Of a stretch of 64,000 nucleotides of DNA, positions 7,150 through 64,000 are shown one piece after another. The position numbers were made by a program, and so were the translations under genes. Source of the DNA: Eledone cirrhosa (lineage: Eukaryota); the NCBI GenBank assembly GCA_964016885.1, contig OZ024746.1, positions 96,720,001-96,784,000 of the forward strand. The letters are read 5' to 3'. Position 1 is the first letter of the stretch. The number at the start of each line of letters is the position of its first letter. The notes under the pieces were generated by a model. It saw nothing but the letters and a program-made list of their open reading frames with translations, searched no databases and was not told the DNA's origin.

Positions 7150-7277
7150 CATGGAACTCTTTTAACCATCTTTTGATCTTATATTATTTATACTCCAGTC
7201 CTATAAACTGTTGAGTGCTACTTATCCAATATTTTCATTGCTTTAGTGTGCTACAATAAAACTCACCTCCTACATAT

Positions 7278-7745
7278 ATACATCAATGTATGCATAGTAT
7301 ATTTGGCAATATACTGTATGTTTAATTAAAAACATTTTGAAGACCTTACGCTATCATTTTAAAGTAGTGACTATTTCACTTCTTTTCGGCGAAAGAAGGC
7401 AGAGAAGCTAACAGTCCGTTTCATGCTGTTTGGAAATCATCAGAACTACGTACTGCCCTCTTCCACCGAAAATTATAGAAGCTGGATTCTTTTAGAATTC
7501 CAGTAATAATCAGGAGCTGATTATACAGAGCGATTGCCGGTCCAGCAAAAATTAAGTATTAGGATTGGTGCTCTGAAATAGCGATGTATACATGAATGTA
7601 TGTATAATATATCTGGCGAAAAGAAGTAAGTGACATAGTCACTACTTTAAAATTATAGCGTAAGGTCTTCAAATTGTTTTTAATTAAACATATGGTATAT
7701 TGCCAAATATACTATGCATACATTCATGTATACATCGCTATTTCA
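7278..7745 (-). mobile_element. Penelope-like non-autonomous element with inverted plus partial tandem terminal repeat and a minimal hammerhead (7395-7460)
   Basis: 7278-7390 is inverted against 7615-7745; reverse complement shows agtt CTGATGA tttccaaacagcat GAAACggactGTT agct. Confidence 0.6.
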
Positions 7746-8257
7746 GAAAGAAGGGTTTCTCCCTGCGTATGAAAGGCCGGTTGTATGATGCCTGTGTGAG
7801 GAGTGCGATGCTGCATGGTAGTGAGACTTGGGCAGCAACTGCAGAGGATATGCGACGGCTGGAGAGAAATGGGGCAAGCAAGCTCCGTTGGATGTGCAGT
7901 GTCAATGTGCGTGAACGACCCAGCATAAATGTGTTGAGAGAGAAACTGTGTCCGAGAGGGATAGAATGTAGTGTACGGGAGAGGAGACTGAGGTGGTATG
8001 GACATGTGATGCACATGGAGGATGACCGATGGGTGAAGAAGTGCCAGGAAATGCCAGTTGAAGGAAGACGTGGTAGAGGTAGACCACGAAAAACATGGGC
8101 GGAGGTGGTGAGTACAGACCTCAAATTACTGAAGCTCACGGTGGAGATGACGAAGGACCGTGACAAGTGGAGAAATGCTGTGCTGAATAAGACCTGTCCC
8201 ACCCTTGCAAGCAGGGAAGAGCGGACGTAAAGTGATGATGATGATGATGATGATGAT
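7746..8257 (+). mobile_element. 5'-truncated RTE LINE 3' end (family A) with (GAT)n tail
   Basis: ORF KGRLYDACVRSAMLHGSETW...RRLRWYGHV...GRGRPRKTW; (gat)n tail. Confidence 0.92.
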
Positions 8258-8259
8258 AT

Positions 8260-61600: not shown

Positions 61601-61613
61601 ATATCATGTATCC

Positions 61614-61686
61614 CTAGTTTATCTGATGAAAACGCAGATATCATCCCATGATGATATTTGTTTTTGAAATGCGCATAATAAAATAC
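61614..61686 (+). ncRNA. Type I hammerhead ribozyme motif (same family as 6900-7149)
   Basis: tagtttat CTGATGA aaacgcagatatcatc-ccat-gatgatatttgttttt GAAA tgcgca TA ataaaata. Confidence 0.82.
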
Positions 61687-64000
61687 TTGGAACTCTTTTA
61701 ACCATCTTTTGATCTTATATTATATATATATATATATATATATATATATATATATATAGAGAGAGAGAGAGAGAGAGGTGTAAAATCATGACCGCGGCGC
61801 CAAATGATTTCGTTTTGTGTGTCACATGCCGAAACCGCTTGGCGCCGCGGAGAGGATTTTTACATATGTCTATACCAACTCTTTATCTCTCCATGTATTG
61901 AGTACTCTCGTGATTATTGGTCGTTTCGGTTTCAGCACCGCAGACTCTCTCTCTCTATATATATATATATGGGAGCTATATATGCGATATTAGAAATAAC
62001 CGTTTCTACTTTTTAGGCACAAGGCCAGCAATTACGCAGTACATTACTGGTACTTTATTTTATCGACCCCGTAAGGATGAAAGGCAAAGTTAACCTCGGC
62101 AGGATTTGAACTCAGATTATATTAGAAATAACGTTACATATAAGCACAAGCAAATGCTCTCACACGCACACACGCGCAGAGAGAGAAAGATAGTTTTAAT
62201 AGCTGCAGTAAAAGACAGTTCAAGGGAGGTAATAAAGTAGATATTACACCTTTTCTCAATTAGAATTAGAATCTTTTGTCTGAACAGAACAGGATATATT
62301 TTACTGCGTGTTGACAGTCAGATTTTATCCTTGTAAAATTTAATATTGTGATTTTAAATAAAATTTCAAGCTTTAATAGGTGACAGGTTTGTTTAATATT
62401 GCTGATTAAATGATCAATGTCATTATAACATTATTTCTGTTTCGAGGCAGAATTACTCATTCCCCCCACAAGAAAACTTTAGACAACGAATATTTTCATT
62501 CTCACTCATATATCTATCTATCTAAGGCGGGTAAAATTCCCGAGATCCATGGACGAGTTCTCTCCAGCGGTCTCTGTCCCTCATATATATATACATATAC
62601 TTTATATGTATGTGTTTTATAAACACACACGTATATATATTTTCTATCTTAATTTCATTGTGGTTTACTTCCATTTCTTAACGGAACACTAGTCTACCAT
62701 ACACACACATATATATATATATATATATATATATATATATATTACCAGACCAACCTGAAATAAAATTATATTTATATATAATGATAATAATAATAAAAAG
62801 GGCTAGGCGATAAATCTTCATTACATTTATTAACGTTACAATCCCTAAACTATATATATTATTATAATTAAAGTAATATATACTTTCATATACAACTCTA
62901 TTATATATAAATCCATGAACACAGTACTATGAATTCATGACGTTGATGCACGTAAGATCACTTTAGACTTGTATATGTAGATAGTAATACATATATATTC
63001 AAGACAACTTACTCTATCGCTATACATTAGTGTCTATTATATACACATATATAAAGTGTGTATAATACAGTAAACAAAATAATCTGTAATATTTGAGACG
63101 ATTAATAATTAGAAGCAGAATATATATGAACAAATATATGTGCGTGTATATATATATGTGTGTGTGCGTAGAATAATGTAGGTTGAGCACATGATCAAGT
63201 TATGATAGACAACTTCACCGGAAATGCTGATGATGAAAGTGACGGACTTTGCCGATGTAGGCGTACGGAGATTGACGAAGTGCGAGTGGCGAATACGTCC
63301 GAAAGAAACCGAGTAGCGAGGATTCGGTGCTCGTATTTCAGATTAACTTAGTTGAAGCCTAGAACTGCGGCTGAGCTAGTTGACGCATTTTGCAGCGGCG
63401 CGCTCTTGTACTAGTAATATCTATATGGACCATGTCTTCGTCTAGATTAAAATTTTTCATCAAGAGATGTCGATTGAAACAACCTATTGTTCGATGAAAG
63501 ATATATCACTCTTATGATTAAAAATCCCACCACACAAATTTGATGTTTAAACTGGTAAGTTGTAACTATTTTCCGTCATACCGTTAAAAATTTTTCAGTT
63601 AATTTTTCTTCCGAATTAGCTTTAACATTCATTCAACTTAAATGATTCATAATTACTTCTCGTCATATTTATTTCTATTGTAATTGGGGGTGTCCCTCTC
63701 TTCCTCATTTGTTGATTCTTATATCAACTATATTCAGTCTGGGTCTTCTTTTTTAATTAAATTTCAAGCATGAATTTCTTCGTGGTTGAAGAATCTCGTG
63801 TTTTGAGTAACATAAACTCGATATCTATACTAAGAAGTGAAAAATACAAAACAAGTTCCGTACAGAGAAGACAAATTTATATAATAAAAAAAATCTTTAT
63901 TCTATAACTTTATGGACAATCGTGTCACATATATATATATATATATATATATATATATATATATATATATATCGAGTACTCTGAGTAATGGTCTAACCAG

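Follow-up and report, generated by a model that had tools for sequence, protein, structure and literature searches.

A stem-loop scattered among TA repeats of Eledone cirrhosa is probably one of a conserved pair of hairpins in Hydra-clade Penelope-like elements

Why should many repeats that do not align with one another carry the same small stem-loop shortly before their 3' ends? The question is raised by a 64,000-nucleotide stretch of the Eledone cirrhosa genome (assembly GCA_964016885.1, contig OZ024746.1, positions 96,720,001 to 96,784,000 of the forward strand; hereafter the window), set in an AT-rich animal genome of 3.0 Gb and rich in RTE-type fragments of long interspersed nuclear elements (LINEs), TA runs and fold-back repeats. 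An earlier note on this DNA had listed nine sites of a stem-loop motif and attributed them to a superfamily of small, microsatellite-associated parasites. We find that the shared stem-loop is real and that its carriers are mostly truncated, often fold-back 3' ends of several protein-coding families of Penelope-like elements (PLEs) of the Hydra clade. Judged by sequence comparison, the motif is probably the first hairpin of a conserved pair in these elements of aquatic animals, each hairpin likely binding one reverse transcriptase (RT) that starts a few bases 5' of the stem.

The pattern given in the earlier note matches exactly at five of its nine sites (7191, 31206 and 61877 on the forward strand, 30579 and 30869 on the reverse strand), against 0.04 expected and at most one in 100 local dinucleotide shuffles of the window. 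Site 19466 carries a GCTC/GAGC variant of the ACTC/GAGT stem, sites 44102 and 43732 are decayed copies with one or two stem changes, and site 63974 retains the 3' half of the motif only, after a (TA)n run. A covariance model built from 76 hairpins at other loci recovers seven of the nine sites at E<0.2 and places 63953-63983 at E=3; it does not recover site 43732. Genome-wide, the strict pattern occurs 35,474 times and its reversed form 356 times, a count that includes some false positives, since two of 30 examined loci (L023, L027) are chance matches within the open reading frame (ORF) of another LINE. The GCTC/GAGC form, with flanking letters that differ from those of the strict pattern, occurs 16,029 times against 43 reversed, and the mismatched ACTC/GAGC form just 315 times, many of these resembling point mutants of common families. 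Among 60 loci picked by the pattern, 27 have a hammerhead ribozyme core 60-125 nt upstream of the motif, 11 have a fold-back whose end is at the hairpin, and 48 have a TA or CA run after it; the corresponding shares of 1,800 random positions are 1.0, 1.8 and 28.7%. The association with hammerheads, fold-backs and TA flanks thus holds. The motif does precede the element end, although the distance of 50-70 nt given before is corrected to about 35-63 nt within the window, measured from the 3' end of the hairpin to the TA run.

The outer ACTC/GAGT stem of the earlier description was correct, but an inner covarying stem and a bulge were missing from it. The unit reads RCTC-Y(N)n-R-TH-GAGY-RCT, with a 4-bp outer stem, a 2-nt 3' bulge, an inner stem of 1-4 bp and a free loop. 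In an alignment of 76 rows (A2), 97.5% of the cells are paired, four of the seven pairs show two-sided changes, and covariation reaches 0.330 against 0.127 in shuffles and at most 0.179 with slid partners; the outer stem covaries between ACTC/GAGT and GCTC/GAGC. Hydra loci were also collected from metagenomes as a set of 77 contigs by a protein-only search (best 80 of 220); a metagenome scan with a single protein query had given no match. From these loci, 95 distinct hairpins were picked by sequence alone, inner pairing not being required, and inner pairs 1-3 are paired in 95, 73 and 74% of them against 73, 45 and 38% with shuffled partners. The excess is confined to the 2-nt-bulge register; bulges of 0, 1, 3 or 4 nt do not beat the shuffles. 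Among 41 hairpins from the E. cirrhosa genome itself the same pairs form in 93, 95 and 87%, and three other register-position cells are also above shuffles (0.39, 0.42 and, with n=14, 0.86). A structural descriptor finds the hairpin on the sense strand of the 77 contigs 82 times and on the antisense strand twice, compared with 0.15 in shuffles. The structure is common to families that do not align, which agrees with its earlier reading as a cis-acting RNA element, probably for recognition by the RT.

The carriers can be followed to coding elements. The family at 7192 (family A) represents the 3' terminus of an element whose ORF has 821 amino acids (locus L066), and other hairpin families of the genome also lead into Hydra ORFs: family B (L263/L304), family E (L303), family F (window position 44102), the 19466 family (L338, L343), L307 and L310. 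Five window families (7192, 19466, 30869-like, 44102 and tail-less copies) connect to full RT-GIY-YIG Hydra ORFs elsewhere in the genome. The PLE-type RT and the C-terminal GIY-YIG nuclease share a single ORF with KDHK, YRDDG and Y[IF]G.T motifs, 821 amino acids long in L066, 786 in L303 and 712 in L307. RLRW[TR] and DKT (not DKG) occur in L066, L303, L307 and L308, a CNC-x5-C linker in five ORFs, and CCHH is absent from the hairpin-bearing ORFs; C-terminal CxxC and CxH are matched in L066, the pattern finding no match in L303 and L307. A Pfam search of the L066 protein gave no hit, and 25 homologs were found at E<=1e-10. The Hydra clade has been defined by RW, DKT and CxCX5C without CCHH (Craig et al. 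2021, PMC8557442), and by these motifs of their predicted proteins the hairpin-bearing ORFs belong to it. The L066 ORF (2129-4591) additionally holds an N/S/T-rich insert of about 65 amino acids before the CxCX5C linker, missing from the 25 homologs; N-rich inserts have been reported in rotifer Penelope ORFs (PMC3846280).

Further Hydra traits are the (TA)n target, the inverted truncated arm and the one-sided tail, all present here, and a type I hammerhead core with stems I-III in three window copies of family A; a pattern search found no hammerhead core in families E, G and K. An Rfam search of the window at E<=1 returned no hammerhead or other relevant family, only microRNA look-alikes in TA repeats and a ribosomal RNA (rRNA) fragment. 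Membership of the Neptune clade was considered and rejected, as CX2-5CxxC and CCHH are absent from the hairpin-bearing ORFs, whereas Neptune-clade PLEs of the same genome (L051, L053, L054) have this linker and CCHH and lack the hairpin at their own ends; hairpins met near Neptune elements in a Pfam-based GIY-YIG search proved to be separate insertions. Readings as miniature inverted-repeat transposable elements (MITEs), Helentrons or short interspersed nuclear elements (SINEs) were likewise dropped, the ends being asymmetric, the arm lengths variable and the ORFs of PLE type.

These connections bear directly on the idea of a separate superfamily of small, non-autonomous microsatellite parasites. 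Several observations agree with it: family G (window position 31016) is elsewhere in the genome a non-coding tandem unit of 572-603 nt, a satellite with one hairpin per 58-bp unit extends over more than 17 kb, no link to an ORF was found for three window copies (30579, 31207 and 43732), and the 64-kb window holds no remnant of a Hydra ORF. Most families nevertheless connect to Hydra RT-GIY-YIG ORFs, the short copies are 5' truncations of the usual kind, differing in length, and the non-coding units are most plausibly derived elements that make use of the same hairpin signal, as proposed for retrozymes (bioRxiv 10.64898/2026.07.22.740005). A superfamily of its own is thus very improbable, and the window copies are truncated element ends. 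What survives of the earlier view is the Penelope type of the carriers and a signal shared across non-aligning families; the retrozyme comparison made there fits family G, most other families having ORFs.

The view of a single hairpin per element also has to be given up, because it missed both a twin hairpin and the fact that copies end just 5' of either one. With a relaxed descriptor, the metagenome contigs contain 119 hairpins, among them 39 pairs 55-83 nt apart, of which 31 remain without same-family repeats (by eye). The order is ORF, 3' untranslated region (UTR), hammerhead, hairpin 1, hairpin 2 and the next ATG; in the metagenome pairs hairpin 1 follows the hammerhead GAAA by 42-67 nt, hairpin 2 precedes the ATG by 12-57 nt, and in this layout the gap between the two hairpins is about 35-60 nt. 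Two full hairpins precede the ORF in 33 of 52 metagenome start regions with 150 nt upstream, one in 13 and none in 6; by eye, most of the 19 regions short of two are truncated, have an altered final triplet, or are false starts. Pairs in the E. cirrhosa genome are 78-106 nt apart. Family B combines hairpin 2 with a Hydra ORF (L263/L304), and in family K hairpin 2 is seen in a read-through copy (L328). For the 19466 family the pair was predicted before the search past the tail, which then found hairpin 2 in six of nine matches, two of them before a Hydra ORF (L338, L343); this hairpin contains an insert of about 55 nt, and GCTC/GAGC closes it in five of five folds.

A twin-hairpin pattern search of the genome was dominated by one satellite. 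The satellite at G000:C1:14,234,976 to beyond 14,251,999 (L149, L302) consists of 58-bp units, each a hairpin plus spacer, over more than 17 kb, and terminates with a tail like that of family E and then (TA)n; it resembles a tandemly amplified hairpin-tail unit.

The positions at which copies end coincide with the pair. Family A has 65 mapped 3' ends, every one of them at hairpin 1 (-19 to +1) or hairpin 2 (-9 to -3). Each of its 22 two-armed insertions combines the two kinds of end; selection ensured that one arm bears a tail but left the kind of the other free, and at one locus (L065) the tail is on the inverted arm. Four families of this genome have a canonical pair; of their 147 ends, 142 fall between -20 and +3 relative to a hairpin start, intervals that together make up about 30% of the reference. 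Adding families F and G gives 162 of 169, their second anchors having been chosen afterwards. Inverted arms in the window end at -4 (7192), -4 (19466) and +1 (44102), and ten near-identical metagenome copies end within -15 to 0 of a hairpin.

On this basis, we propose the following hypothetical course of insertion. The GIY-YIG nuclease would cut both strands of a (TA)n run, and two RT units, one per hairpin, would prime complementary DNA (cDNA) from the two ends of the cut, each starting 3-9 nt 5' of its stem on a TA-rich stretch. The cDNA begun at site 2 would carry hairpin 1 and the spacer, that is, the tail, and that begun at site 1 would lack it; a head-to-head join of the truncated 5' ends of both would then give the fold-back. 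Two starts set by a hairpin pair would explain the one-sided tail of Hydra elements. Because hairpin 2 lies downstream of the 3' UTR and would be copied by neither start, the template would be either an uncleaved tandem read-through transcript or a circular monomer, the latter having been proposed earlier (PMC4209133). The 5' ends of 30 ORF-bearing family A copies (L268-L297), picked from inside the ORF, fit a circle, a bound upstream ribonucleoprotein or a stall at hairpin 1 equally well: ten lie between the hairpins (+32 to +83, within 52 nt), one at the hammerhead cut, six in +95 to +227 and 13 further upstream. The element at L066 comprises precisely one unit, running from one site 2 to the next. 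More tentatively, and with some doubt on our side, the pair may act as a two-site RNA ruler in which each hairpin loads one RT of a dimer downstream of its start, so that one RNA primes both ends of the double-strand break.

The same ends could arise if the hairpins acted as DNA, with the GIY-YIG nuclease recognising them in single-stranded cDNA or extruded DNA and cutting 5' of each to resolve a longer transposition intermediate. Published work lends this some weight: the Hydra tail was ascribed to nuclease-mediated resolution (PMC8557442), and the Drosophila Penelope nuclease needed the tail region for cutting plasmid DNA (as cited in PMC11167929). RNA and single-stranded DNA are also indistinguishable by sequence, and G-T wobbles are tolerated in both. 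However, the genomic ends of Poseidon_Ac coincide with RT starts mapped in vitro (PMC11167929), folding favours the RNA-sense strand (G-U 31 against A-C 17, summed), the first cDNA being antisense, and the variable spacing (6-25 nt, up to about 80 with inserts) speaks against a double-stranded DNA site. We consider a role at the DNA level unlikely, and binding of an RT by each hairpin remains our preferred explanation.

Still less probable, in our judgement, is that the hairpins serve another step (translation control, promoter function or hammerhead folding, or packaging of the RNA by the RT), with the starts determined by how far they lie from one bound site or by nearby TA-rich stretches annealing to the target; the agreement with hairpin 2 would then be secondary. 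Hairpin 2 does sit 12-57 nt before the ATG, the sequence immediately 5' of each hairpin is TA-rich and would promote annealing to a cut (TA)n run, and family F retains its second end despite a reduced hairpin. Against such a role, the hairpins are 55 to 106 nt apart, depending on the family, and in every one the second end tracks hairpin 2; moreover, a non-coding tandem family keeps both hairpins, where translation control would be useless.

Several points weigh against a pair of RT-binding hairpins and have to be set beside the evidence above. Three of the seven base pairs of the hairpin are invariant in alignment A2, and the significance of its shuffles is overstated because the rows are related and were picked with a Y...R filter; the excess of G-U over A-C is modest (17:12 and 14:5). 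In family F the second site is a 4-bp GCAC/GTGC stem with a 5-nt loop, without bulge or RCT, about 7 nt after the second end, and copies still end there. Hairpin 2 of family G, TCTC-CAG...CTG-TT-GAGA-ACT around an insert of about 80 nt, folded so in one of three copies, and one locus (L111) has a single hairpin. Two near-identical metagenome copies end at -65 and -86. TA microhomology blurs the end positions, some apparent hairpin-1 ends may be points of subfamily divergence, and many loci were picked by tail-bearing queries. Finally, Neptune PLEs of the same genome end at two sites without this hairpin, which is therefore not required for PLE tails generally.

Family F reads through in 112 places, leading into a Hydra ORF; these matches were first taken as a canonical hairpin 2, but the matched letters are not the canonical 5' stem and the family is counted as deviant. 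The two Neptune end sites (L051, L053, L054, L070) are 35-67 nt apart, each after a TATA-like stretch, and in two families a short A[AG]GA[CT] follows both sites (by eye), a possible clade-specific twin signal.

Within the window, family A is represented by an inverted tail-less arm at 6862..7032 (reverse strand; hammerhead core 6962-6916), which ends 4 nt before the hairpin-1 position and is joined to (TA)n, and by a sense arm at 7053..7275 (forward), with a hammerhead (core 7087-7133) predicted to cut after 7141, then hairpin 1 and a tail. This hairpin (7192..7219, forward strand) pairs ACTC with GAGT and, inside, CAG with CTG, with a TT bulge and a following GCT; the tail stops 6 nt before the hairpin-2 position of read-through copies, and the arm corresponds to the 3' end of the L066 element. 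A further family A copy without tail (61555..61730, forward) has a hammerhead at 61623-61669 and stops at the hairpin-1 position, within (TA)22. The 19466 family forms a fold-back insertion at 19349..19524 (forward), its inverted arm ending 4 nt before hairpin 1 (19466..19489, forward; GCTC/GAGC, inner TGT/ACA, TA bulge, ACT) and its tail followed by (TA)21, and a tail-less relative at 19630..19740 (forward), with a hammerhead core at 19651-19692, stops at (TA)n ahead of where hairpin 1 would lie. On the reverse strand, 30530..30605 comprises a hairpin (30605-30579, inner TAC/GTA, TT bulge) and tail, with a fold-back at 30687-30783 upstream that stops about 80 nt before it, and 30806..30915 is a short copy 75-85% like family B, with tail and a hairpin (30894-30869) whose inner stem has decayed.

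The family G copy at 30918..31120 (forward) has a decayed hairpin at about 31016 that was absent from the earlier list; another piece of the family lies at 8257-8342. The hairpin at 31207..31229 (forward), 30 nt after a (TA)31 run, is found by both pattern and covariance model and has no relative among the fetched loci. Neither has the small fold-back at 43622..43795 (forward). It ends at a hairpin (43732-43754) that has decayed here and of which the genome matches include an intact form. The family F fold-back at 43977..44164 (forward) has a partial hammerhead (44036-44058), an inverted arm that ends at hairpin 1 (44102-44123, one stem change), and a tail followed by TA. Family K occupies 61782..61945 (forward), with fold-back 61782-61860, hairpin 1 at 61878-61906 and a tail, and the last copy (63974..64000, forward) is 5'-truncated, its hairpin reduced to the 3' half behind (TA)22 and its tail running past the window.

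Other repeats accompany these copies. Adjoining family A, a second fold-back (7274-7747) consists of a unit of about 330 nt, with a hammerhead core at 7443-7419 (reverse strand), whose sequence leads from the tail round into the hammerhead again. The short arm of this fold-back stops a few nucleotides short of a reduced GCT...AGCACC hairpin; relatives occur in L032 and L258, and the repeat is retrozyme-like. At 12222-12395 a fold-back with tail lies in (TA)n without a hairpin, a member of an abundant family (21 fetched loci) that is probably another PLE clade. Further palindromes are found at 9845-10043, 18684-19013, 21066-21371, 24861-24915, 27496-27554 and 35331-35383, the third built of a SINE-like repeat with many copies in the window. 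RTE-type LINE fragments (12426-13862 and others) have a longest open frame of 478 amino acids, and the 3' UTR of such a LINE gives a 48-bp satellite at 23149-24626. A decayed fragment of 18S rRNA lies at 14507-14794 (Rfam, 77 bits), and an interstitial TTAGGG-like repeat at 55021-55105 within an inverted repeat (54760-55418).

Template choice, the one-sided tail and the head-to-head arms have been unexplained since PLEs were described; the one in vitro study gave two internal starts and no general signal, and the hairpin pair turns the question of the start site into a direct test by mutagenesis. With its length of about 25 nt, the hairpin also offers a means of annotating unclassified fold-back repeats, which number in the tens of thousands, as Hydra ends instead of MITEs, and the pair may amount to a portable signal for writing DNA from RNA templates at TA repeats. 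If one RNA did prime both break ends, this would be a distinct mode of retrotransposition that explains tail, fold-backs and tandems together, any RNA with two hairpins, down to the 58-nt satellite unit, could be converted into DNA, and a minimal RNA-recognition code would be at hand for the nearest relatives of telomerase.

Hydra PLEs, their hammerheads, tails and fold-backs and two start sites were already known; the conserved hairpin pair was not found described. The published Hydra clade likewise has a hammerhead in the 3' end, (TA)n targets, an inverted truncated arm and a one-sided tail (PMC8557442), with quoted tails of 30-40 bp ascribed to nuclease resolution, compared with 55-106 nt between sites here. 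By eye, the consensus ends of Hydra-2_Amil (coral) and Hydra-2_Ajap (sea cucumber) in File S7 of that paper show the GCTC/GAGC hairpin, that of Hydra-1_Crog has a degenerate one, and Hydra-1_Obim and Hydra-1_Ajap stop before it; the accessible passages and supplement text make no mention of the hairpin or its twin. A literature search including passages of PMC4209133, PMC3846280 and PMC13282606 gave no description of the hairpin or the pair either, its reach excluding figures, subscription journals, Repbase/Dfam notes and bioRxiv supplements. Non-LTR (long terminal repeat) retrozymes (PMC7229834; bioRxiv 10.64898/2026.07.22.740005) are non-coding tandem units from PLE ends, likely moved in trans, to which family G and the 7274-7747 unit are similar; in the accessible text they are defined by the hammerhead and no shared RT signal is named, whereas family G has no hammerhead core by pattern. 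The lizard PLE Poseidon_Ac comes close in vitro (Frangieh et al. 2024, PMC11167929): both target strands are cut and extended, two internal RT starts bound the tail, hammerhead cleavage is dispensable, a start lies in or near a stem-loop, and a dimer is predicted. That is one element with one 'AC-rich stem loop' within the ORF, and the parts of the paper available report no conserved repeated motif across families. The Hydra hairpins differ in being a covarying pair in the 5' UTR, found across phyla, with ends just 5' of each stem.

The RTs of LINE and R2 elements are positioned by a 3' stem-loop, a structured cis element common to autonomous and non-autonomous partners. There the stem-loop lies 5' of the start and is copied, whereas the Hydra hairpin would lie 3' of its start and would not be copied by its own RT, so that hairpin 2 would survive only in read-through copies.

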